This document shows, in pieces, positions 40,463-52,650 of a DNA stretch of 64,000 nt. The notes beneath the pieces are model-generated. The model ran no database searches, had not been told where the DNA came from, and worked only from the letters and a program-made list of their open reading frames with translations. The stretch lies in sequence record MH550421, one strand, 5' to 3'. How positions within the stretch are numbered: the stretch's first letter is position 1; each line of letters begins with the position of its first letter. This DNA comes from Enterobacteria phage T6. Made by a program: the position numbers and the translations under genes.

Positions 40463-41268
40463 GCTTCATCAGTAGAATTACAGCGTTTTAGTATAAGATG
40501 TCTAGAAACTTTTATGGCATTTGAGCACTTTTTAATTGAATCATATTTAATACCGTCAACTGAAACGGTTTTGCTAGTTGGAGAAATTTTTCCATACATT
40601 GGATTTTTTGAACCAACTTGAAGTCCTTTTAAAGCTTTTGAAAGCTTTTGTCTAGATTCCAATGACATGGGAGAATTCTTTTTACCTTCAATAATTCGCT
40701 TGCGATGAAGTTCGCGTTCTTCTTCGCTCAAAGAATTGTAATATTTTTTAACACCGTTTGATATAGATAATTTATCTTTCTCAGACCGCTCTCCAACTAA
40801 TTTACTTCTAACATCTTTTCGCTTCATAGCTATGCTTACAGCTTTATTTAAATTTGCTTGATGCTCTGGCGTACGTTTATATTTCTTTAAAGCACGTGAA
40901 ATAGCTATTTTAGTTTTTTCTGTTTTCTTTTTACCTTTATTTGCTAAACTATTTTTGTGGCGATGTTCAAGTGTCTGTTCATAAGCAGTTCCACCTTTTC
41001 CACCAGGTTTAATATTATATGTATTTTCTTTTAGACAATACTCTTCGGTTACAAGTTCAGCTTCTTTATCATACATTTGTTTTTCATTATCAAAAACATG
41101 TAAAATTTCTTTATTAAAATTTTTTCTACCATATTTTAATAAAGAGGCACGAATCAATGTTCCTGACCCCATATAACCGTCATTTATGTTATCGGTGCTA
41201 TGCGCACCGATATATTCCTTTGAATTAATTATATTTGTTATTTTATAAATTATATAATACCTATGCAT
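40438..41268 (-). mobile_element. free-standing GIY-YIG homing endonuclease (Seg-like)
   Basis: IIYKITN...EYIG motif, DGYMGSG, conserved Arg/Glu/Asn; basic NUMOD-like C-terminus; overlaps nrdG start and nrdD stop. Confidence 0.75.
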
Positions 41269-43078
41269 GTTTTACTCGTTTTACCATTTCTTTCATTTTA
41301 CCTAAATTCCATGGAACAACGCTAGGAGTTCCAAGATAGCCACATGTTCTTCTTATGGTATTCATCTTTTTAGGATCAGTTTCTCCACAAATAGAACAAA
41401 CAAATCCGTTTTCAGTAGGAGTCATTTCATGGGTACTTCCACATGTAAAACATTTATCTACTGGCATATTAACACCAAAATAATCTAAATGTTGTGCAGC
41501 ATAATCCCATACGGCCTCAAGACCTTTTAAGTTATTTTTCATATCAGGAAGTTCAACATAAGAAATGTGACCACCTGTCGCAATGAAATGATATGGCGCT
41601 TCACGAGAAATCTTTTCAAACGGAGTAATATTTTCTTCTACTGAAACGTGGAAACTGTTAGTGTACCAGCCTTTATCGGTAACATCCTTTACACTTCCAT
41701 ATTTTTCTGTATCGAGTTTACAGAAGCGATAGCAAAGGTTTTCAGCAGGAGTAGAATATAAACTAAAAGCAAATCCGGTTCTTTCAGTCCACTGTTTAAG
41801 ATGAGCATTCATTTTAGTTAAAATTTCTCGTCCAATATCACGACCGACAAGAATATTCAATTCGTGAATACCAATGTATCCTAAAGATACTGAACTTCTG
41901 CCGTTTTTAAATAACTCAATTATGTCGTCATCAGGTTTAAGACGAACCCCGAATGCACCTTCTTGGTAAAGAATAGGGGCAACAGTAGCTTTAACTCCTT
42001 TTAAAGAACTAATTCTACACATCAAAGCTTCAAAACACAAATCCATTCGTTCATTGAATAATTCAACAAATTTCTGTTCATTGAATTGTGTTCCAATATA
42101 AGAATCTAACGCGATGCGAGGAAGATTCAGTGTTACAACACCAAGATTATTACGTCCATCAAGAATTTCATTACCAGTCGAATCTTTCCATACGCTCAAG
42201 AAACTACGGCAACCCATTGGAGAAACAGGAACAGATGAACCAGTGATAGCTTTATTATTCTTAGCTGAAATAATATCAGGATACATCCTTTTGCTTGCAC
42301 ACTCTAGAGCAAGCTGCTTAATATCATAGTTCGGGTCGTCTTTATAAAGATTAACACCTTCTTCAACGAACATAACAAGCTTAGGGAAAATAGGAGTTAT
42401 CCCATCACGACCAAGACCTTTAATACGATTTTTCAGAATTGCTTTCTGAATCATTCGTTCAGTCCAGTCAGTTCCCGTACCAAATGTAATTGTTACAAAA
42501 GGCGTTTGTCCGTTTGAACTAAAGAGAGTATTTACTTCATATTCATAAGCTTGAAATGCATCGTATACGTCTTTTTCTGTTTTAGATTGGGCATAATTCA
42601 ACGCATCAGCGATTTGCCATTTTTCTGCATCCTCAATATGTTTTGCATAGGTACGTTTAACATAAGGAGAAAGTACTTTATCTACATTCGCAAAAGTCGT
42701 TCCGCCGTATTGGTGAGAAGCAACCTGTGCAGTAATTTGTGCCATAATCGCAGTAGCAACGCCAATTGATTTAGGAGTTTCAATCTGTGCATTACCTAGC
42801 TTAAATCCGTTCTCAAGCATTCCTTTTAAATCTACTAAACAGCAATTAGTAAATGGAAGAGCAGGGGAATAATCAATATCATGGAAATGAATAATTCCGC
42901 TTTCATGCGCTTTCATAATAAAAGACGGGACCATATTTTTGGCAATGTGTTTAGACACAATACCAGCCATAAGGTCCCGTTGAGTTGGAAAAACACGAGA
43001 ATCTTTATTAGCATTCTCGTTTAAAAGGTCTTTATTAGTTTTATGAATCAATCCTTCAATTTCTTTTTCAATTGTCAT
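41261..43078 (-). CDS. nrdD: anaerobic ribonucleoside-triphosphate reductase NrdD
   Basis: 605-aa continuous ORF; C-terminal glycyl-radical region RRTCGYLG and Cys cluster. Confidence 0.9.
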   Translation of the reverse strand: MTIEKEIEGLIHKTNKDLLNENANKDSRVFPTQRDLMAGIVSKHIAKNMVPSFIMKAHESGIIHFHDIDYSPALPFTNCCLVDLKGMLENGFKLGNAQIETPKSIGVATAIMAQITAQVASHQYGGTTFANVDKVLSPYVKRTYAKHIEDAEKWQIADALNYAQSKTEKDVYDAFQAYEYEVNTLFSSNGQTPFVTITFGTGTDWTERMIQKAILKNRIKGLGRDGITPIFPKLVMFVEEGVNLYKDDPNYDIKQLALECASKRMYPDIISAKNNKAITGSSVPVSPMGCRSFLSVWKDSTGNEILDGRNNLGVVTLNLPRIALDSYIGTQFNEQKFVELFNERMDLCFEALMCRISSLKGVKATVAPILYQEGAFGVRLKPDDDIIELFKNGRSSVSLGYIGIHELNILVGRDIGREILTKMNAHLKQWTERTGFAFSLYSTPAENLCYRFCKLDTEKYGSVKDVTDKGWYTNSFHVSVEENITPFEKISREAPYHFIATGGHISYVELPDMKNNLKGLEAVWDYAAQHLDYFGVNMPVDKCFTCGSTHEMTPTENGFVCSICGETDPKKMNTIRRTCGYLGTPSVVPWNLGKMKEMVKRVKHA

Positions 43079-43548
43079 TTTAAACTCTTTCTAAGCTGCT
43101 TCTTAAATGAAGCTATTAACTGTGTTTTGGTGTCAGATTCATTATATTCAAATCCTCTTTGAAGCATCTCGGCCATCATTTCCTCTTTTCCTAAACGAGA
43201 AAATTCCTTTGATTTATCTCCAACAAAGTTAGGGTGAATATTATTTTGGGTGTAATCGGATTTTAAGTAAGTAAGTAAATTTTCTAACCATTCAAGATAA
43301 TCAACACCTTGTCCCTTTAAGCCAGAACGATTAAATTTGTGCTTCATTTGACCTTCTGCAGCATTACAGAGATTACAAAGCAATCCACGTACCTTTCCTG
43401 CTTTTGGTCCATTTAATTCATGGTCATGATCAAGATGATTAGCTTGAACATCAGGATTTAGTTCTCGTTGGCAAATTAAGCATTTACCGTTTTGTGCATT
43501 ATAAAATTTTTGTTTTTCTTCTTTGTATAATTTGCCAGTCAATAACAT
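43075..43548 (-). CDS. 49: endonuclease VII gp49 (Holliday junction resolvase)
   Basis: 157 aa; zinc-binding CLICQ...HLDHDH...CNLCN. Confidence 0.9.
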   Translation of the reverse strand: MLLTGKLYKEEKQKFYNAQNGKCLICQRELNPDVQANHLDHDHELNGPKAGKVRGLLCNLCNAAEGQMKHKFNRSGLKGQGVDYLEWLENLLTYLKSDYTQNNIHPNFVGDKSKEFSRLGKEEMMAEMLQRGFEYNESDTKTQLIASFKKQLRKSLK

Positions 43549-43589
43549 AATAAACCCTTACCTTAAATAGATAAGGGTATTTATTATTT

Positions 43590-44075
43590 TCAAGTATTGT
43601 AAAACATTTGATGCAATCGCTTATATTGCCGAATCTTTTGGTCAGAAAAAGAAATTTGAGTTTCAAGCCATTCAATGTACTCTGCAGCAGCTTGCATTAA
43701 ATTTCCTTCATAGCCATCGTTATTTTCTTGTGCAGCTAATTTAGCTAATGCGTATGAAATACGTTCACCTTGAAAATCGGCTTTAGGCTTCTGAACAACT
43801 TGATTAGTTCGCTCTACAACTTCTTCAATTTCGCCATTTTCGACTGATTCAGTATTCCACAAACACCAATACGTAATTGGCTTATCGTAGATGTTAATAA
43901 TCTTTCCATCAGAAAGTTCAATTTCAATAATTCCAGTATCAGGTTCTATATCATCTTCACATTCTTTTGCAAGTTCACGAACCTTAAAGACAGTACCTGC
44001 ACTAAGTTCCGGCCAGTAATTACACAGCCCTGTATCAGCACGATTAATTCTAAACCACTTATCTACTGTAATCAT
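43590..44075 (-). CDS. pin: PinA-like protease inhibitor
   Basis: 161 aa from ATG at 44075; size and position match T4 pin. Confidence 0.5.
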   Translation of the reverse strand: MITVDKWFRINRADTGLCNYWPELSAGTVFKVRELAKECEDDIEPDTGIIEIELSDGKIINIYDKPITYWCLWNTESVENGEIEEVVERTNQVVQKPKADFQGERISYALAKLAAQENNDGYEGNLMQAAAEYIEWLETQISFSDQKIRQYKRLHQMFYNT

Positions 44076-44197
44076 GTCCCATCTCCATATCAATTATGTC
44101 ATTTATTGTAGGTTCATTATATACTGTTTCTTCATCAGTGTAAACCGGTTCTTCCAGCTCTGGCTCTACAGTTTCCCATCTAGCCGCCCACCAAGGT

Positions 44198-44392
44198 TTA
44201 ACCCCGAAGCTTATTAAGTTCTTCATAATCAATCCAGGATTCTAATCCTGATGGCAAATCAGATTCAATTTCCCAAAGAAGCTCTTCAATTTTCTGAAGA
44301 CGATCTAGTTCTTCAGCTGGAATAGTAACCATTGATGGAGTTCTTGATACACTAATATCGTAAATCATATTTACCCCAGTTTGACCATGCAA
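44198..44392 (-). CDS. hypothetical protein, 64 aa
   Basis: small ORF. Confidence 0.4.
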   Translation of the reverse strand: MHGQTGVNMIYDISVSRTPSMVTIPAEELDRLQKIEELLWEIESDLPSGLESWIDYEELNKLRG

Positions 44393-44586
44393 TCACCGTA
44401 TTTCCACTTAGAAATAGACTTTTCACCATTAGAATAATAAACTTCGAGTTTAGCACGATTATTTTTAATTTGAATAACCTTGGCTGTCATCAAAGTTCCA
44501 TACCCATAATAAACTGCAACTTCATCACCTACATATACCGCGCTTCCGCGGTAATCATGGATATAATCAGTTCCTTCGAGCATCAT
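44371..44586 (-). CDS. hypothetical protein, 71 aa
   Basis: small ORF overlapping nrdC stop. Confidence 0.4.
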   Translation of the reverse strand: MMLEGTDYIHDYRGSAVYVGDEVAVYYGYGTLMTAKVIQIKNNRAKLEVYYSNGEKSISKWKYGDCMVKLG

Positions 44587-44846
44587 TTAAAGTATTCCCG
44601 CAATTGGTCAAATCCACCAATATGACTTCCATCAGGAGCAAATACCTGAGGCATCGTCAAACCAATTTGAGTATCACGACCTAGTTTCGTCAGAAGCTCA
44701 GCAATTTTCTCATCATCAAAAACACCTTTTTCCGGCATAATGTTGATAAATTCAAACGGCTGTTTCTTCACGGTCAAAAGACGTTTTGCATTATCACAAT
44801 ACACACATTTATGAATGTTGCTATCATAACCATATACTTTAAACAT
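44583..44846 (-). CDS. nrdC: thioredoxin/glutaredoxin NrdC
   Basis: 87 aa; CVYC active site. Confidence 0.85.
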   Translation of the reverse strand: MFKVYGYDSNIHKCVYCDNAKRLLTVKKQPFEFINIMPEKGVFDDEKIAELLTKLGRDTQIGLTMPQVFAPDGSHIGGFDQLREYFK

Positions 44847-44847
44847 A

Positions 44848-45090
44848 TTATTCCTTAATTCCTAGTACTTGTTTAAAAGTCTCGTCGTAATCAAGACTTT
44901 GGCCAGTTTGTTCTTTATGTTTGTATATAATATCACTTACTTCTGATAGCATATTTTTATATGAACGAGTTAAAGCTGATTTAAGCACGCTGTATCTATC
45001 AGGAAATTTACCATGTTCATTATAATAAGCTATTGCTAATTCACGGACTGCCTTTTCAGCAGTCTCCATATATTCTTTACGCTTGGTCAT
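44848..45090 (-). CDS. hypothetical protein, 80 aa
   Basis: ORF. Confidence 0.45.
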
Positions 45091-45092
45091 TC

Positions 45093-45461
45093 TTAATCCA
45101 AAATATTATTAGGCATTGGTTGAACACTCGCAAGTTCTTTAAAGAACTCAGTAGAGTCAGGTAATTTAATCATTTCCGGAGCATGCTTACTAAATTTATG
45201 TTTACAATGACGACATTTATATTCAAGCTCTGGTTTACGCCAATTAATCAATTGGACCTGTTCAGTACCGCACTCAGGACAATTAGGAACGTTTTTAGAA
45301 GCCCTTTCACGACGTTCAACCATAACCATAATAGCGTCCCATGCTGGAGGTTTAAAATCTAAATCGTCAGTAACTAACAGTCCTTTATCAAACCCAGCGC
45401 ATGGAGTCCATTCAGGAAAATCTGAAGCTTCTGCAATATCTTCTAATAGACGCTTTTTCAT
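45093..45461 (-). CDS. zinc-ribbon protein, 122 aa
   Basis: CPECG...CRHC four-cysteine motif. Confidence 0.5.
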
Positions 45462-46384
45462 TTCAATACCTCAATAGCATTACGTAAACCATTTGCTTTG
45501 GCGGTTAAAGCCTTAAGAACTTTAGTATGCTCTTCAATTTGTTTTTCAACTTCAATCAAACGAGCATTGAGATATTCGCGTTCTTCTTTCATAGTATCAT
45601 TCCCATGATTGAATTTTGGCGTAGGTTTAAATTCACTAGGGTCCTTTAATTTAATAACAAATTTAGTTTCAAACAGTGAAAGACCATAATTCGTATTATC
45701 ATCAAAGGATTCAACTACGTCCATTTTAGACAATAACGTACGAAGATTATAAGTCAAAGAACGAATCGTTTTATTATGTTTATTAGCTTCACATGGTTTC
45801 ATATATGGAAGATTTTTATATATTTCATGCGGAGCACAAACAATAATTGACAATTCAAATGGTCCATTCTGTGATGATGGAATGAATTTAGCCGTAACCC
45901 AATCTTTTACATTTACATTAATAGTACGATCATCGCCATGACAAAACAGTCTACGAGAATGCTTAAAAAGCATATTCACATTATTATTAAATTCGTGTGA
46001 AAACTCACTGGCAAATTTTTCTTTACTATTTTTAGAAAACCATTCTTCTAAATAAGTTCTTTTCACGTCATTAATAATATTAAATGTAACAACATTATCA
46101 TTTGATACATTAGTCTCAATGTAGCTTGGATACATAAATTTTTTAACATTATTAACAGCTATCACAGAAGATAGTAATCGGGAACGTTTGAACCACTCGA
46201 GCAAAGAACCAAGAGAATGTGAATATGCATTTTGTGTATCTTTACAAATATGGTTTTCCCATCCAATATAGTCTAAAAAATCACGAAGAATATTATTGAT
46301 TACTGCTCTGTGTCCTATCTGATAATTACGATGTTTAGTAATAAGACTGTCAAAATAATCAATATAATGTTTACGAGTTTTCAT
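45458..46384 (-). CDS. paralog family protein with C-terminal coiled coil, 308 aa
   Basis: C-terminal heptad-like segment ...LRNAIEVLK; starts MKTR like the 340-aa paralog. Confidence 0.55.
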   Translation of the reverse strand: MKTRKHYIDYFDSLITKHRNYQIGHRAVINNILRDFLDYIGWENHICKDTQNAYSHSLGSLLEWFKRSRLLSSVIAVNNVKKFMYPSYIETNVSNDNVVTFNIINDVKRTYLEEWFSKNSKEKFASEFSHEFNNNVNMLFKHSRRLFCHGDDRTINVNVKDWVTAKFIPSSQNGPFELSIIVCAPHEIYKNLPYMKPCEANKHNKTIRSLTYNLRTLLSKMDVVESFDDNTNYGLSLFETKFVIKLKDPSEFKPTPKFNHGNDTMKEEREYLNARLIEVEKQIEEHTKVLKALTAKANGLRNAIEVLK

Positions 46385-46436
46385 GTTCTTCTCACTTGGT
46401 TAATGGTTTATACTCCGAGCCATCCTTGGCTTTAAA

Positions 46437-47438
46437 TTACTTAATTAACTGTAAAGCTTGTTCAAGACGATCCAGGCGATTAACAGATTCTTCCCAAATC
46501 CTTTTAGCCTGCTCATATTCTTTCTGTGCTTTATTAGAAATTTCTAGAACTTCTTTATAAGCTTTTTCTAGTGCAATAACTTCTGGACGAATTTCTACCG
46601 GTTCAGGTGAATCGTCAAGACATTCCATTAGTTCCTCAAGGGTAGTTTCTTCTTTAGGAGTATTCACAATTTCATCACATTTTTGTTGGTAAATTTCTTT
46701 ATCAGTAGGTGAATAAGCACATTTCACTTCACGAAGACTAATTACAATTTTATATCCTTCCCAGCCGCATATATTCTTAAAAGGATATGTATGAATATTT
46801 TCTACTGTTTCCATACAAAGTAATGCGGTCTCTAATTGACGAGTTATAGTGCTAGCAATTGAGAAAAATTTATTAATATTCTTTTGGTTAGTTTCTGGTG
46901 TAAAAAATCCATAATTCACAAAAATAGCTACTTTATTTTTATCAAGTTCATATTCTTTTATGATAATCATATCAGAAGCCAAAGGATGAATTTGACGATA
47001 ATCGCCATAACATAATTTAGAAGCTGATTTTAGAAGTTGCTTCTTGAAAAGTCTGAAATTACTAACCCAACGACGAGTAAAAATATTCTCAGGGTCTTCT
47101 TTATTATTAAGATGATAAGAATTAACATCACCGAACCAATTGTATCCTACTACATCTTTAGTTCGTTTAATTTCTTTCCCAAATTTACTAAGAATATCTT
47201 GATTAACTAAATATGAAAGAAGACGAGACCCTTTAAAGGTTTCCTTAATATCATCTTTATCTGCACGACTAGAAATTTTATGAACTTCATGAATAAATTT
47301 GCTGGAAGAAACAATACTTGCATCAGTATTATTGAGCCATTGATTGATAATGGAAATAACGCTATTCTGACTAGACATAGGTTTAACTTTATCATCAATA
47401 ACGCTGTTGAATGATTTGATATATTCGTTACGAGTCAT
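46437..47438 (-). CDS. paralog family protein with C-terminal coiled coil, ~333 aa
   Basis: ATG at 47438 with GAGGAG SD; shared FRLFKKQLLKSASKL motif; C-terminal coiled coil. Confidence 0.55.
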   Translation of the reverse strand: MTRNEYIKSFNSVIDDKVKPMSSQNSVISIINQWLNNTDASIVSSSKFIHEVHKISSRADKDDIKETFKGSRLLSYLVNQDILSKFGKEIKRTKDVVGYNWFGDVNSYHLNNKEDPENIFTRRWVSNFRLFKKQLLKSASKLCYGDYRQIHPLASDMIIIKEYELDKNKVAIFVNYGFFTPETNQKNINKFFSIASTITRQLETALLCMETVENIHTYPFKNICGWEGYKIVISLREVKCAYSPTDKEIYQQKCDEIVNTPKEETTLEELMECLDDSPEPVEIRPEVIALEKAYKEVLEISNKAQKEYEQAKRIWEESVNRLDRLEQALQLIK

Positions 47439-47466
47439 ATTAATCTCCTCAGTAGAAAGTAAGAAC

Positions 47467-47496
47467 ATTATACCACATCCTTGTGGCAAAGTAAAC
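47467..47496 (-). promoter_or_regulatory. sigma70-type early promoter
   Basis: rc GTTTAC (47491-47496), 18-nt spacer, TGGTATAAT; near-identical to the 2418-2447 copy. Confidence 0.7.
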
Positions 47497-48518
47497 TAGT
47501 TTAGTGCATTTAGTGCATTTTTCAGTTTAGAACGTTGCTTCGTGAGATTTTTGACTTTTTCTTGAGCTTTTTCTAGCATCTTTTCAGCTTCTAACACTTC
47601 ATTAGTTGCTTTAACGAGTTCATCATCTACTGCCTTGATAGACTTCTCAATCGCATCCGCGTGCCATTTTTCAACAGGTTTAAGACTCGGATTTTCAATA
47701 GGAAGAAAATTCACTTTATTAAGTTTACATGCATCTATATTGCTTGAGCTATACATCCAAAATTTAGGATCGTTTGAGGAGTAATTAGATGAATTTAAGG
47801 TATCTTGCACTTCTTGCTTTTTCTCTTGCGGGACTTCGTCCTTTCTCAAAAAATCGTATTTAAATGAAACGACCATATCAAGTTCATATGTTGTTGTATG
47901 TTCCCAATTTCGCTCAAAACGAGGTAAAATCTTAGAATGAACAGTGGCAACAACATCCATATACTTAAATGCTTCTGTCAACTGTGATTTAAGGCATTCA
48001 CAAATTGAAAGAGAATTTTTTGTATTAGGTTTAAAGCTAATTCGTGCAGTTCTATTATTTTCTTTTAACGGTCTTACTTCCATCTGAAGAGTATAACCGT
48101 CAAATTTCAGATTCTTTAAGTTAATATCAGAACCTTTTAATCGACTAGCAGTAGACAAAATTTGCTTTAATTGTTTACGGAATAGAGCAATAAATCTCCA
48201 TTCAAGACGATAATGATTTGGATTAAAAAATCCAGTTGATAGATCGGTCTTACTTTGACCAACGCCTCGAACAAATAGAGGATTTTTATAATCAATAGTT
48301 TTACAGAAATCAACGAGCTGCTCGCGAGCAGTCATTTGTGTAATATACCCTGATTCATTAAAATTACGCACCCATTCACTGCTGTTCAGATGTTTAAAGG
48401 CGTGAATGGAACAATTAACTTTATTAAGGTCTAAATTATTTTCACACAAAAATGTCATAACATCACGAGTATAGCTGGCATTACGAACCATATCTTCAAT
48501 TTGAGAACGAGTTTTCAT
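47496..48518 (-). CDS. paralog family protein with C-terminal coiled coil, 340 aa
   Basis: RFIALFRKQLKQILSTASRLKG motif; C-terminal coiled coil. Confidence 0.55.
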   Translation of the reverse strand: MKTRSQIEDMVRNASYTRDVMTFLCENNLDLNKVNCSIHAFKHLNSSEWVRNFNESGYITQMTAREQLVDFCKTIDYKNPLFVRGVGQSKTDLSTGFFNPNHYRLEWRFIALFRKQLKQILSTASRLKGSDINLKNLKFDGYTLQMEVRPLKENNRTARISFKPNTKNSLSICECLKSQLTEAFKYMDVVATVHSKILPRFERNWEHTTTYELDMVVSFKYDFLRKDEVPQEKKQEVQDTLNSSNYSSNDPKFWMYSSSNIDACKLNKVNFLPIENPSLKPVEKWHADAIEKSIKAVDDELVKATNEVLEAEKMLEKAQEKVKNLTKQRSKLKNALNALN

Positions 48519-48526
48519 GGTGTTCC

Positions 48527-49438
48527 TTAAGATTTAAGTAAATCAACAATTTTAATTAACTTTTCACGCTCAGATTTAGCTTTACTACTCAATCCAGATA
48601 GTCTGAAAATTTCATCATCATATTGTTGAATAGAAATATTTAGCTCTTCAATTTGCTTATTAAAATACTCAATTTGTTCAGAATGTTTTTCGTTACTACG
48701 AACTGGTACAGGTTTTGTAGGCAATTTAGTTAAACTGGATTCATCCGGGCGATAAATTAAAATGCAATTTGAACCAATCGGGCATTTAGCACCAGACACA
48801 TATTCTAATGTTCCGGCTTCTTTTAAAACTTCAAAAGCTAAACAGAGATGATGCCCCATATTAACATAATCTGTAGAGCGAGCTCTGACGTAATAATCAT
48901 CGCCGCGAATACTAAATTTAAAGCATTTAAGGTCTTCTGTATTATTGGTCTTAAAAATCATTTGTTTATCTAGACCTTTAGCTAATCGAGCGCCTAATGC
49001 TAATAATCGTCGTTGATTTTCCAACAAATCCGCAATCATTTGATCGAATGATAATTTCGGCATTAGTCGACCATAAAGGTCATATCCTTTATTATAATTA
49101 CGAAGGATTTCACTCGCGTTAATACGAGACAACGCTCCAATTTTATTAAGGGCTTTCATAATGCGATTAGATAAACTCATTCCAGACCCGTTTGTTCGCT
49201 GTAAATGTTTTTCTAATCCAAATCCAATATCAACTTTAAATTTATCTAAAATTTTGGCATGAACATCTCTGTCAATAACATTCAAATCCAAAGTTGGGTT
49301 AAATCTATGAAAAAATTTATCTGGCTCTCCACGACGAAATACAGTCCATTCATTTAATTTTTTATTAACTAAAGATTTAATTACTGCATTGACATTATTA
49401 ATTACTACTGACATATTTTCCTCACTCAATTTTACCAA
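48527..49438 (-). CDS. paralog family protein with C-terminal coiled coil, 303 aa
   Basis: LLENQRRLLALGARLAKG motif; C-terminal coiled coil. Confidence 0.55.
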   Translation of the reverse strand: MVKLSEENMSVVINNVNAVIKSLVNKKLNEWTVFRRGEPDKFFHRFNPTLDLNVIDRDVHAKILDKFKVDIGFGLEKHLQRTNGSGMSLSNRIMKALNKIGALSRINASEILRNYNKGYDLYGRLMPKLSFDQMIADLLENQRRLLALGARLAKGLDKQMIFKTNNTEDLKCFKFSIRGDDYYVRARSTDYVNMGHHLCLAFEVLKEAGTLEYVSGAKCPIGSNCILIYRPDESSLTKLPTKPVPVRSNEKHSEQIEYFNKQIEELNISIQQYDDEIFRLSGLSSKAKSEREKLIKIVDLLKS

Positions 49439-49823
49439 TTACGCGGAATAAGATTGAACAGACTATATAAGTACCACATATAGATTGAACTAATGCCATT
49501 CCAAAGAACCAAACAATATTATCAAACCACGTCTGTTTTACGTCGAAAGGACGTAAACTTACAGTAATATTATCGCCTTTTTCTATTGATGAATACATCT
49601 CTGGTGAAATATATTCGCTAAATCTATAACCGTCTTTGAGTTCATATACGGCAATAAACGATAAACTAGACCCCTTTCCTTGAGTTCCTGTAAGGGTATT
49701 AACTACAGTAACATCATAATCTTTATAATGCATATAATCATTAATTGCGTAATAACCATATGCAACTACTACACATAAACAGCATATCAATAAATTCAAT
49801 CTTTTAATTATCAACTGTTTCAT
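49422..49823 (-). CDS. membrane protein, 133 aa
   Basis: N- and C-terminal hydrophobic helices. Confidence 0.5.
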   Translation of the reverse strand: MKQLIIKRLNLLICCLCVVVAYGYYAINDYMHYKDYDVTVVNTLTGTQGKGSSLSFIAVYELKDGYRFSEYISPEMYSSIEKGDNITVSLRPFDVKQTWFDNIVWFFGMALVQSICGTYIVCSILFRVIGKIE

Positions 49824-49878
49824 AATAATCTCAATTAAAAGGGCTTAGAACCATTATACCATCCTTGGTATAAAGCGG

Positions 49879-50406
49879 TTATGCGAGTACCGTCTTTAAC
49901 CGTTCTTCAAACTTCCGAAGAGTATTTTGGCGTTCAGCTCTTTGCTTTTTGTAAGTTTCAATACGCTCTGAAATGAGAGTGTATCGTTCATTTACTGATT
50001 CTTTCATAAAATCAGGAATTTCACGAGAAGCTTTAATCTCGTCAAATTTATCAATAACAGCTTGCTCTTCAGCAATTAAGTTATCATACATCAAAATATC
50101 TTTCTTGATGAACTCAATATCTTCTTGAGTTACACGAGATAATTTAGATGCTTTATCCTTTTTGTACTGTTCGTTAGTATCACGAGACCAGTGTAATGTA
50201 CGATTTTTATTCGTGTTCTTGTAAATTTCTACAATACCAATCTCATCAATAATAACGATCCAATTCCAACGGGATTTGTAAATTTGTCCTCCATCAACTG
50301 TGATTTCACCTCCGATTGAGATGTCATTAAAGAACTTGCTTTGTGCTTCAGATTTAAATTTACCATCGTTGTAATTTACCAGGTTGAAAATATCTTTAGC
50401 GTTCAT
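49879..50406 (-). CDS. hypothetical protein, ~175 aa
   Basis: ATG at 50406 with GGAGGA SD; longer track N-terminus is translated promoter. Confidence 0.5.
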   Translation of the reverse strand: MNAKDIFNLVNYNDGKFKSEAQSKFFNDISIGGEITVDGGQIYKSRWNWIVIIDEIGIVEIYKNTNKNRTLHWSRDTNEQYKKDKASKLSRVTQEDIEFIKKDILMYDNLIAEEQAVIDKFDEIKASREIPDFMKESVNERYTLISERIETYKKQRAERQNTLRKFEERLKTVLA

Positions 50407-50434
50407 TTTCTGTTCCTCCGTAGTTGATAGTTGT

Positions 50435-50464
50435 ATAGTACCACAGAGGAACGGTCTTGTAAAC
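50435..50464 (-). promoter_or_regulatory. sigma70-type early promoter
   Basis: rc GTTTAC (50459-50464), 18-nt spacer, TGGTACTAT plus conserved downstream caactatcaac. Confidence 0.7.
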
Positions 50465-50466
50465 AA

Positions 50467-50781
50467 CTAAAAGAAACTTCTTTCACAATTTTTTCCACTG
50501 AACCACGCGCTCACTGCTTTCTTAGTCTCAGGAGCAGTGTTATCCATAAACCATTCAAAGGCAGCCTTTTTATGATTCTGGAGGGCTTCTCGGGCTTTAA
50601 TCTGCTCGCGGTCTATTAACACTAACATATGAGCCTTTCTTGTCACCAGGGGCTTCTTATGATTTTTTGAATACTCCCAATCATTTGTCCATCGCATCGT
50701 TGTTGCGAATTGAAATACAGCTTCTTTAATCTTAGTTTCGTAAATTTCACGAGCCTTTGAGTATAACATCATTACCTCCAT
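50467..50781 (-). CDS. hypothetical protein, 104 aa
   Basis: ORF. Confidence 0.45.
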   Translation of the reverse strand: MEVMMLYSKAREIYETKIKEAVFQFATTMRWTNDWEYSKNHKKPLVTRKAHMLVLIDREQIKAREALQNHKKAAFEWFMDNTAPETKKAVSAWFSGKNCERSFF

Positions 50782-50851
50782 TTACCAGTTTAATTCTAGT
50801 CATCTTTTTGATGGCAGTCCATATAATCTATTTCTGAACTGCCTTTTTGTC

Positions 50852-51571
50852 TTAGGATTCTTCTAAATGTCTTTTCTGAAAAGTTGATACCATACTACGA
50901 TACGGTTCATTTGGATATCCGTGTTTTATAGCTTCCTTTGTAAATTTTCTCCATCCATATTTAGTTTCTTTCCAAAGCTCGAATAATTCATCTTCATACT
51001 GCCATATAGTTAAATGAGAACGCTTTGCAGCTTTAATTCCATTAATATGCTTTTCTTTTACTGTAGGATTGCTTAGTTTCTTTTTAATAATATTACTAAC
51101 TTTTCTAACAAAAACTGGGTCCTTATATCGTTGCGAAGTTTTTATTGAAGTGTTTAATTTAGCTTCCGGCGTGGATGTGACCTCTTTCATCTTTTTCTTC
51201 ATATGTTGTATATGATTAGGATTTTTCCATAAATTTATAGAATGCTTTTTGCATTTTATCCTAGTTTCATCTGCAACCTTTCCTCCTTCACCCCCGTATG
51301 ACAGGTTAACACAGTTTTTTCCATATTTCAATTTACCTGCCATGATATATAATATTTCAGCTTGTACCATTTTATCATAATTATCAAAAACTTCTAAAAC
51401 CGTTTTTGATAATATGTGGTCATTTGACACTTTTATACGTTCTATATAATTTCCACTACCAACATACGAATCATTGATGTTATTAGTTATATGTCGACCA
51501 TAATAGTATTTCTTAATACCTGTCTTTAAATTTAATATTTCAGTTTTATAGATAGTAAAATATTTTTTCAT
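50852..51571 (-). mobile_element. free-standing GIY-YIG homing endonuclease (Seg-like), paralog of 40438-41268
   Basis: TIYKTEI...YYYG and HITNNINDSYVGSG match the GIY-YIG core of the other copy; start overlaps stop of AAA+ gene. Confidence 0.65.
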
Positions 51572-52536
51572 TTTAATAATACCGTTTCAGCGATTTCTTC
51601 CCAACCGTTTTTGTCGGTCATAATAAAGTCAGCAAGATAAAGTGCAGTACGCAGTGAAACATTGCGTAAACGGTTAACATTGACTTTCATCCATGATAAT
51701 GCTTTATAAGTTTCTTCATCAGAAAGACCGCGTTTTTGCATCATGTCGGTTGAAAGAATAACATCTTCAACCCTGACCATAATTTCTTCATTAGTGTGAA
51801 CACCCAAATCCAAATAAACTGAGCGGGACACTAATGCTTGTAAATGTGGAGCAAGTTTAGTACCACGGTCTAATTCGCGGTCAATGTCAACGTTTGTGAT
51901 AAAAACAATCGTTCCTTTAAATTCAAACTCACGCTCAATGCCTTTTTCTTCTAAGTAAGAAGATGCAGTGCTCCAGCAGACTTTACGGGTCTCTCCAGTG
52001 TCCAGAGCAGCTTTCAGAAGATTAAGAATGTCCATATCAGAGAAAACATCCACATCATCAATCAAAAGGACAGAATTTTCTTCACGATTATTCCAGAGCT
52101 GTTCATAAAGACCGATACCAGAGATTTTACCATTAATGCTTTTATATTCAATGTATCCAATATCATTTGCTTTATTTAAAGCTTTATCTAAAGAATACGT
52201 TTTACCAATACCTGCCGCACCAGAGATAATTAATGAACGAATGTTTCCGTTAATAATACCGTTCGTCATCATTCCCATAACATTAAATCTTTTATTAATG
52301 CGGGTTTTCATATCTTCATATGATTCTTTAACTTCTTCAACTTTTACACCATCATATGAAATGTCTGATTTGTAAACCCAAACACCGCGACGCTTACCGT
52401 CAATTTCAACAAAAACTTTACCATCTCCTTGTGCATCTACCGGAGCATTGTCTGGGAACCATTCGCCTAAGAGCTCAAAAGTTCCAGAGATTTCTTTACC
52501 GAAGTAGATACCCTTATTGATAGTTACAGTTTTCAT
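51568..52536 (-). CDS. AAA+/P-loop ATPase, ~323 aa
   Basis: Walker A GAAGIGKT, Walker B LLIDDVD, sensor-1-like TIVFITN; ATG at 52536 downstream of promoter. Confidence 0.6.
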   Translation of the reverse strand: MKTVTINKGIYFGKEISGTFELLGEWFPDNAPVDAQGDGKVFVEIDGKRRGVWVYKSDISYDGVKVEEVKESYEDMKTRINKRFNVMGMMTNGIINGNIRSLIISGAAGIGKTYSLDKALNKANDIGYIEYKSINGKISGIGLYEQLWNNREENSVLLIDDVDVFSDMDILNLLKAALDTGETRKVCWSTASSYLEEKGIEREFEFKGTIVFITNVDIDRELDRGTKLAPHLQALVSRSVYLDLGVHTNEEIMVRVEDVILSTDMMQKRGLSDEETYKALSWMKVNVNRLRNVSLRTALYLADFIMTDKNGWEEIAETVLLK

Positions 52537-52624: not shown

Positions 52625-52650
52625 AAAAAAAGGGAGCCCGAAGGCTCCCT
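52625..52650 (-). terminator. hairpin terminator downstream of NTase gene
   Basis: gggagcc-cgaa-ggctccc preceded by A-run. Confidence 0.7.

Follow-up and report, generated by a model that had tools for sequence, protein, structure and literature searches.

Genes nrdC.3 to nrdC.6 of phage T6 as ancient paralogues of one early accessory protein family with a likely role in counter-defence

Gene identities

A stretch of 64,000 nucleotides from Enterobacteria phage T6 (MH550421; the window) carries four consecutive minus-strand genes beside the glutaredoxin gene nrdC. These genes, nrdC.3, nrdC.4, nrdC.5 and nrdC.6, are best read as ancient paralogues of one early accessory protein family that is specific to Straboviridae. 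The proteins are likely counter-defence binders; the probability of this reading as a whole is roughly 0.6.

Comparison with the annotated records of T4, RB5 and RB69 identified the four open reading frames (ORFs) as the T4 genes of these names. All four are intact in the T6 window. The 3,981 bp that they span are 100% identical to the T6 record AP018814 (window coordinate = record coordinate + 6) and about 95% identical to T4 and T2. The array is flanked by nrdC, nrdC.1 and nrdC.2 on one side and by nrdC.7 to nrdC.11 on the other. The family members are:

nrdC.3, 45458..46384, minus strand: family member 1, 308 amino acids, 36.2 kDa; ORF matching phrog_1435 with E = 1.3e-101
nrdC.4, 46437..47438, minus strand: family member 2, 333 amino acids, 38.9 kDa; ORF matching phrog_1435 with E = 3.9e-167
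nrdC.5, 47496..48518, minus strand: family member 3, orthologue of the T4 anti-Dsr1 gene, 340 amino acids, 39.7 kDa
nrdC.6, 48527..49414, minus strand: family member 4, the most divergent, 295 amino acids; phrog_2257 with E = 7.1e-151

A preliminary description of the window had located these ORFs, and all were found on the minus strand with one start codon to be moved. The start of nrdC.6 is most likely ATG 49414 (295 amino acids), preferred over TTG 49438 (303 amino acids) of that description. A GAGG ribosome site lies 7 nt before this ATG, which is also the start annotated in the T6 record.

Pfam and PHROGs hold the four genes as three separate families. The T6 nrdC.5 product shares 88% of its amino acids with that of T4 nrdC.5, encoded at the same position, and matches Pfam DUF7235 (PF23882) over residues 1–340 (403.6 bits, E = 7.9e-121). 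With membership defined as a full-length match above the gathering score of 30 bits, nrdC.3 fell outside DUF7235 (14 bits, C-terminal helix only), and the search gave no match for nrdC.4 or nrdC.6. Both nrdC.3 and nrdC.4 match phrog_1435 over their full length, and all nrdC.4 relatives carry PF26897. In the same way, nrdC.6 matches phrog_2257 over its full length and its relatives carry PF26899.

Homology among the four proteins

On sequence grounds, nrdC.3 and nrdC.4 are certainly homologues, since they share 26% identity over 270 amino acids (BLASTP, E = 3e-5), a common PHROG family and a clean, full-length alignment. Pairwise identity among the paralogues is only 13–26%, and pairwise BLASTP alone provided no convincing link of nrdC.5 or nrdC.6 to the others. 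The best match of nrdC.6 among the four covers 21 residues of nrdC.5 (E = 0.007). When 1.84 billion representatives were searched exhaustively with the nrdC.3/4 profile (HMMER), only 9 proteins were retrieved, none of them like nrdC.5 or nrdC.6.

Profile–profile alignments (hhalign) were calculated with block-shuffled controls. The linker and the coiled coil were cut off, so that composition was unable to drive the result. The natural chimera P0056 was left out of the families, and orthologues from RB69, a Dhakavirus and a Gaprivervirus were added. The nrdC.5 family aligned with the nrdC.3/4 family over 144 columns with a probability of 87% (P = 4e-6, z = 11.5), a score reached by 0 of 30 shuffles. 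The alignment of nrdC.5 with nrdC.6 covered the conserved motifs A and B in order (P = 0.0025, z = 4.4, 0 of 30 shuffles). The alignment of nrdC.3/4 with nrdC.6 was marginal; one of 40 shuffles reached its score (P = 0.03, z = 3.2). Similarity outside the coiled coil thus exceeds the shuffled controls for the first two pairs and is borderline for the third, and it is more than compositional. The evidence that the four genes form one superfamily with a common architecture, as the preliminary description had proposed, is strong for three of them and moderate for nrdC.6. It suggests that PF23882, PF26897 and PF26899 belong in one Pfam clan.

The divergence of nrdC.6 leaves room for another interpretation, in which only nrdC.3, nrdC.4 and nrdC.5 are paralogous and nrdC.6 is an unrelated protein that resembles them only in its C-terminal coiled coil and in being helical and basic. 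This would agree with the 21-residue BLASTP match, with the absence of nrdC.6 relatives from the HMMER result, with its separate family in Pfam and PHROGs and with the marginal alignment to nrdC.3/4. It is nevertheless improbable given the nrdC.5–nrdC.6 alignment, in which no shuffle reached the score and motifs A and B followed in order. From motif A through motifs B and C and the linker to the C-terminal ending L..A(I/L)..LK, the proteins are also colinear, the model of nrdC.4 finds an nrdC.6 orthologue over its full length (see below), and the adjacent position of nrdC.6 has been kept in four genera.

Two further proteins were considered as members. The gene nrdC.8 (window 49879–50406, minus strand) was rejected as a fifth member with hhalign P values of 0.07 or worse; it is highly conserved, unlike the four. 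Its product of 175 amino acids has a long charged C-terminal helix (...KFEERLKTVLA) and is 83% identical even to that of RB69. Acj61p118 was tested as a third member in an Acinetobacter phage and found no support.

Common architecture

The domains are predicted to follow a common order: a variable N-terminal helical domain, motifs A and B, of which B is a basic helix pair, an alpha/beta sandwich, a proline-rich linker and a C-terminal amphipathic helix. The corresponding regions are:

Motif A (F/L-K/N-x-S/G-x-L-S/T...L..F/Y) of nrdC.4, 47181..47243, minus strand: conserved
Motif A equivalents, minus strand: nrdC.3 46136–46198; nrdC.5 48306–48368; nrdC.6 49094–49156
Motif B, conserved basic helix, of nrdC.4, 46995..47069, minus strand: colinear in the merged and hhalign alignments
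Motif B equivalents, minus strand: nrdC.3 45926–46003; nrdC.5 48120–48194; nrdC.6 48965–49039
Alpha/beta sandwich (strand-strand-helix-strand-strand) of nrdC.4, residues 158–235, 46734..46967, minus strand: tail-terminator-like fold
Alpha/beta sandwich equivalent of nrdC.5, residues 144–219, 47862–48089, minus strand
C-terminal heptad helix of nrdC.4, 46440..46586, minus strand: from heptad scores
C-terminal heptad helix equivalents, minus strand: nrdC.3 45461–45592; nrdC.5 47499–47669; nrdC.6 48530–48688

Motifs A, B and C are colinear across all four proteins in the merged alignment. Conservation among the paralogues falls on hydrophobic or basic positions of helices, and the conserved scaffold comprises motifs A and B, the long helix of the sandwich, the linker and the coiled coil. 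The N-termini are similar, as had been noticed before, with MKTR in nrdC.3 and nrdC.5 and MTR in nrdC.4. The central basic motif that had been ascribed to all four is literally present in nrdC.4 (FKKQLLKSASKLCYG) and nrdC.5 (FRKQLKQILSTASRLKG), but degenerate in nrdC.3 (NMLFKHSRRLFCHG) and nrdC.6 (NQRRLLALGARLAKG). The net charge of the motif B segment is +6 in nrdC.4, +7 in nrdC.5 and nrdC.6 and only +1 in nrdC.3. Three of the four proteins have an isoelectric point (pI) of 9.1–9.4.

Beyond the proline-rich linker, each protein ends in a heptad helix of 45–57 residues whose last turns, L..A(I/L)..L(K/N), are common to all four. Hydrophobic residues occupy 7–8 of eight a/d positions in nrdC.3, nrdC.4 and nrdC.5 and six of eight in nrdC.6. 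The C-terminal heptad scores of the four are the highest among the 52 ORFs of at least 150 amino acids in the window. AlphaFold2 modelled a single long helix for residues 285–332 of nrdC.4 and 281–339 of nrdC.5. The four proteins have the heptad periodicity and the long uninterrupted helix of a coiled coil, in agreement with the C-terminal coiled coils of the preliminary description.

Predicted fold and annotation

The AlphaFold2 model of nrdC.4 had a predicted local distance difference test score (pLDDT) of 84.9 and a predicted template modelling score of 0.67. A Foldseek search with it retrieved the BFVD model of JS10 NrdC.6 over the full length (E = 1e-4, probability 1.0); this protein is a 49% orthologue of T6 nrdC.6. 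The core topology of nrdC.5, read from the usable part of its low-confidence model, was predicted independently to be identical, which joins nrdC.5 to nrdC.3 and nrdC.4.

Among solved structures, the folds nearest to the sandwich are phage tail terminators, and the similarity is at the level of the fold. Examples of this tail terminator/gpU/DUF3168/SPP1 gp17-like tail completion fold are 3fz2, 6tba_4A, 9mu2_D, 8bcp_C and 9oab_Fa. Sequence identity between the nrdC proteins and tail terminators is only 5–12% and without a profile match, so the nrdC proteins do not belong to that family by sequence. Unlike tail terminators, they are extended by a helical domain at the N-terminus and a coiled coil at the C-terminus, and they are encoded by early, dispensable genes. 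Searches of PDB sequences and NCBIfam with the nrdC proteins gave no match, and no enzyme family was detected for any of the four in Pfam, NCBIfam or PDB sequences.

From the fold, the four could be relatives of tail terminators with a structural or assembly role, and GenBank labels such as ‘tail sheath stabilizer’ point the same way. Such a role is highly improbable. The array is located between nrdC and nrdC.10, in the early region and with an early promoter, outside the late structural-gene context of tail terminators. Its genes are dispensable under laboratory conditions and often lost. The product labels of the T6 record are visibly shifted.

In AP018814, product names are shifted or scrambled across window 41261–52536; nrdD is named ‘RNA ligase 1’ and nrdC.5 ‘tail sheath stabilizer and completion protein’. 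Dozens of GenBank records label the block nrdC.1 to nrdC.10 ‘thioredoxin’ because the gene name nrdC was propagated. Apart from this widespread label, little speaks for the four proteins as accessories of redox or nucleotide metabolism, and the probability is close to nil. A thioredoxin or glutaredoxin identity is refuted by the absence of a CxxC motif from all four proteins, the absence of a Pfam thioredoxin or glutaredoxin match and a different predicted fold.

Age and distribution of the array

DNA similarity between the copies is limited to repeats of 14–23 nt, a size expected by chance, and none of them indicated recent duplication or gene conversion. Judged from the sequences, the duplication is ancient and not recent. 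Arrays of two to four copies lie beside nrdC in Tequatrovirus, Mosigvirus, Dhakavirus, Gaprivervirus and an Acinetobacter phage, and copy number across loci ranges from 1 to 4. Mosigvirus RB69 has nrdC.6, nrdC.5 and nrdC.3, and both Dhakavirus ABTNLsp5 and Gaprivervirus UPEC01 have nrdC.6, nrdC.5 and nrdC.4. The Acinetobacter phage Acj61 (Twarogvirinae) has the adjacent genes p120 and p121 between nrdC and nrdC.10. By length and order, they appear to encode the two Acj61 proteins matched by Foldseek at E = 3e-7 and 4e-6. The same position of the array in other genera of the Tevenvirinae and in Acj61 indicates that the duplications predate those splits. The four-fold tandem expansion of the preliminary description therefore stands as a set of paralogues, but not as a recent event: the copies are too divergent, lack similarity at the DNA level and recur as arrays in other genera.

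All 19 Foldseek matches with a named source (E up to 1e-3) came from phages of Gram-negative hosts, namely Pectobacterium, Klebsiella, Enterobacter, Erwinia, Serratia, Yersinia and Acinetobacter. We take these phages to be T4-like (Straboviridae); their taxonomy was checked for Acj61 and JS10 only.

Evolutionary rate and rearrangement

Within Tequatrovirus, the flanking genes retain 97–100% protein identity to T6, with ratios of non-synonymous to synonymous substitution rates (dN/dS) of 0–0.1. The ratios are 0.24–0.46 for nrdC.3, 0.14–0.27 for nrdC.4, 0.23–0.35 for nrdC.5 and 0.11–0.17 for nrdC.6. Gene-wide and domain-wise values together span 0.06–0.46, and no gene or domain exceeded 1. Orthologues of the four evolve 3–10 times faster than neighbouring genes. 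The N-terminal helical domain is the fastest part of nrdC.4 and nrdC.5, and the C-terminal helix is the slowest or nearly so. Of the diversifying selection suggested in the preliminary description, the accelerated protein evolution is real, but dN/dS never rises above 1.

Two allele classes of nrdC.3 are present in Tequatrovirus, one in 139 records with an identity of at least 90% and the other, more common one in 359 records with about 62%. The latter has a mosaic structure: residues 1–40 are identical to T6, and residues 81–280 share 64–92% with Mosigvirus RB69 and only 36–55% with T6. In ACG-C40, the array is reduced to nrdC.6 and an ORF of 72 amino acids that joins the N-terminus of nrdC.5 to the C-terminus of nrdC.3 (locus L004, 6802–7213). 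A laboratory strain of T2 (PV958097; locus L006, 4696–9366) has intact nrdC.3 and nrdC.5; in place of each of nrdC.2, nrdC.4, nrdC.6 and nrdC.7 it has two ORFs, which look like frameshift pseudogenes. The chimera P0056 is a natural out-of-register fusion of nrdC.5 (146–270) with nrdC.3, and NrdC.6 of Sf25 (P0058) contains an internal duplication of about 83 amino acids. Cassette exchange, loss, chimeras and pseudogenes are the pattern of an accessory locus of the host-range type; they fall short of proof of positive selection.

The hypervariable gene nrdC.2 (window 45093–45461, minus strand) lies just downstream of the array. Its identity is 45–78% where its neighbours have 97–100%. The T6 version is longer (122 amino acids) and has a zinc-ribbon motif CPEC...CRHC.

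Early promoter of nrdC.4

As the preliminary description had reported, one copy has its own early promoter. This copy is nrdC.4:

Early sigma-70-type promoter of nrdC.4, 47467..47495, minus strand: GTTTACT-N17-(TG)TATAAT with an extended minus-10 TG

The promoter matches 10 of 12 consensus positions in addition to the TG, and its 30-mer is identical in six of the fetched loci, namely those of T4, T6, T2, G9062, G3F6 and W143. It fits the consensus TTTACW-N17-TAYWAT of the PST/T4 promoters with a promoter-early stem-loop (PeSL) (PMC4122927). No MotA-type middle promoter was found in 45–50 kb of the window. The gene nrdC.5 has been described as an early gene by Srikant, Guegler & Laub (PMC9391042).

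A stem-loop with a 7-bp stem (TGCCACAAGGATGTGGTA) is located at window 47471–47488 (minus strand). It lies inside the spacer of the nrdC.4 promoter, in contrast to PeSL elements, which have the stem-loop upstream of the promoter (PMC4122927).

Known function and comparable systems

The function of the genes had been given as unknown in the preliminary description, which is out of date for nrdC.5. T4 clones were evolved with loss of nonessential DNA, and one clone was unable to plate on ECOR17 (PMC9391042, eLife 2022). Deletion of dsr1 from the host restored plating of this mutant, and cloned dsr1 protected MG1655 against it (PMC9391042). T4 nrdC.5 alone, expressed from a plasmid, restored the infection of Dsr1 cells (PMC9391042). 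The guess of an anti-defence effector was thus right for at least one copy. Dsr1 is a defence protein with a SIR2 NADase (NAD, nicotinamide adenine dinucleotide); its sensor domain, common to Avs7, is reported in a 2026 preprint to be triggered by the phage major capsid protein (bioRxiv 10.64898/2026.01.04.697583).

Since one copy counters Dsr1 and the four are paralogues, nrdC.3, nrdC.4, nrdC.6 and their Straboviridae relatives are candidates for counter-defence. They have the architecture and the core motifs in common with T4 NrdC.5, and differ from it by an identity of 13–26% and by their other Pfam and PHROG families (PF26897, PF26899).

A comparable protein is DSAD1 of phage SPbeta. It is reported to suppress DSR2, which is activated by the tail tube protein (PMC10973363, PMC10981675, PMC11087589 and others). 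Like NrdC.5, DSAD1 is encoded by a phage and counters a SIR2 NADase that senses a structural protein of the virion. It is not described in these reports as part of a tandem paralogue array, unlike nrdC.3–nrdC.6. The targets differ: DSR2 senses the tail tube protein, and the sensor of Dsr1 responds to the major capsid protein (bioRxiv 10.64898/2026.01.04.697583). DSAD1 has no sequence relationship and no detected fold relationship to the nrdC proteins.

Accessory, fast-shuffling clusters that defeat host defences and set the host range are known from T-even phages as the internal protein (IP) cassette of T4 and the dmd-tifA-adfA ‘anti-TA island’ (TA, toxin–antitoxin; PMC9391042; PMC4122927). 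For the IP locus, shuffling is PeSL-mediated (PMC4122927). The IP and anti-TA clusters encode unrelated small proteins, whereas nrdC.3–nrdC.6 are paralogues of one multidomain protein of about 300–340 amino acids.

Proposed mechanism

The proteins would be made early, in part from the dedicated early promoter before nrdC.4. The C-terminal helix of 45–57 residues is expected to form a coiled-coil oligomer, which may supply multivalency against oligomeric targets. The proteins could act as stoichiometric, non-enzymatic binders that occupy or lock a host immune protein, by analogy with DSAD1, which is reported to suppress DSR2 by binding it. In nrdC.4 and nrdC.5, target specificity may be set by the N-terminal domain, which is variable, and in nrdC.3 by an exchangeable cassette of middle region and sandwich. 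Dsr1 would be the target of NrdC.5, and the remaining proteins would act on other defence proteins or on other variants of them. Coverage of different defence targets would explain why the array is retained despite fast evolution and repeated reshuffling.

Several observations weigh against this interpretation. The functional evidence is limited to nrdC.5 and comes from T4, not from T6 (88% identity). Literature searches retrieved no report of direct NrdC.5–Dsr1 binding, of an NrdC.5 mechanism or structure or of a paralogy of nrdC.3–nrdC.6, and searches on DUF7235, anti-Dsr1 and nrdC-mobD returned nothing. dN/dS values below 1 throughout fit relaxed constraint as well as an arms race. T2 tolerates the loss of two copies; some members may therefore be without a current target. 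nrdC.6 joins the family on modest statistics. The nrdC.5 model, built from its own shallow family, has a pLDDT of 59, and its usable parts are residues 104–220 and the C-terminal helix. The basic central segment could point to nucleic-acid binding instead.

This last point leads to a different function, in which the four proteins are early factors of host takeover or nucleic-acid binding that act on host RNA, DNA or transcription. The rescue from Dsr1 by nrdC.5 would then be indirect, for example through the timing or level of the capsid protein or through NAD metabolism. The motif B charge of +6 to +7 in nrdC.4, nrdC.5 and nrdC.6 and the high pI of three of the four proteins fit such factors, as does the lack of published direct Dsr1 binding in the literature searches. 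Yet nrdC.5 expressed alone from a plasmid was sufficient for rescue, and accessory status, pseudogenes, cassette swaps and variable copy number are typical of host-range and counter-defence genes rather than of functions central to host takeover. A similarity to RNA polymerase alpha is confined to about 70 residues, in a two-layer sandwich of a generic kind, and was not seen for nrdC.4. Host takeover or nucleic-acid binding therefore appears unlikely, and counter-defence binding is preferred.

A more specific version of counter-defence binding is put forward as speculation, with about as little claim to be right as the takeover factors. NrdC.3–6 could be early decoys found throughout Straboviridae and exapted from a tail-terminator-like domain. 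In each paralogue, the coiled coil would provide the oligomer that blocks the sensor of a different bacterial pattern-recognition defence, of the Dsr1/Avs type that detects conserved proteins of the virion, before the late structural triggers appear. If this were true, the best-studied phage would carry a four-member ‘anti-sensor’ battery of which Dsr1 is the single known target.

The gene names and the role of nrdC.5 were already known. The analysis adds that the four genes constitute a single superfamily of T4-like phages that is ancient, evolves fast and has a defined domain plan. T4 and T6 are reference phages for defence and counter-defence, and nrdC.3, nrdC.4 and nrdC.6 are still annotated as ‘hypothetical’ or wrongly as ‘thioredoxin’. 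The domain map of NrdC.3–6 can be used for the design of truncations. The two nrdC.3 alleles, the chimeras and the pseudogenes are natural variants for the mapping of specificity.

Neighbouring genes

In Acj61, the locus contains genes for a nicotinate phosphoribosyltransferase and a PRPP (phosphoribosyl pyrophosphate) synthetase (locus L012, 1229–3938), which belong to NAD salvage. They could be another route around NAD-depleting defences.

An ORF of 239 amino acids lies between nrdC.9 and nrdC.10 (window 50852–51571, minus strand). T6, RB5 and W143 have this ORF, and T4, T2, G9062 and ACG-C40 lack it. The RB5 record names it an intron-like DNA endonuclease, and its N-terminus is GIY-YIG-like (YYYGRH...YVGSGNY); no Pfam match was obtained at E = 0.01. 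It is probably the mobile insertion of a homing endonuclease.

The adjacent nrdC.10 (window 51568–52536, minus strand) is 99–100% identical within the genus. It has sub-threshold Pfam matches to AAA_14 (5.8e-5) and nSTAND3 (4.9e-4), which are AAA and STAND-type NTPase domains. A strong G+C-rich hairpin followed by a T run (AGGGAGCCTTCGGGCTCCCT TTTTTTATTT) is located upstream of nrdC.10 at window 52631–52650 (minus strand) and is likely an intrinsic terminator. In G9062, a terminator is annotated between the nrdC.11-like and nrdC.10-like genes.

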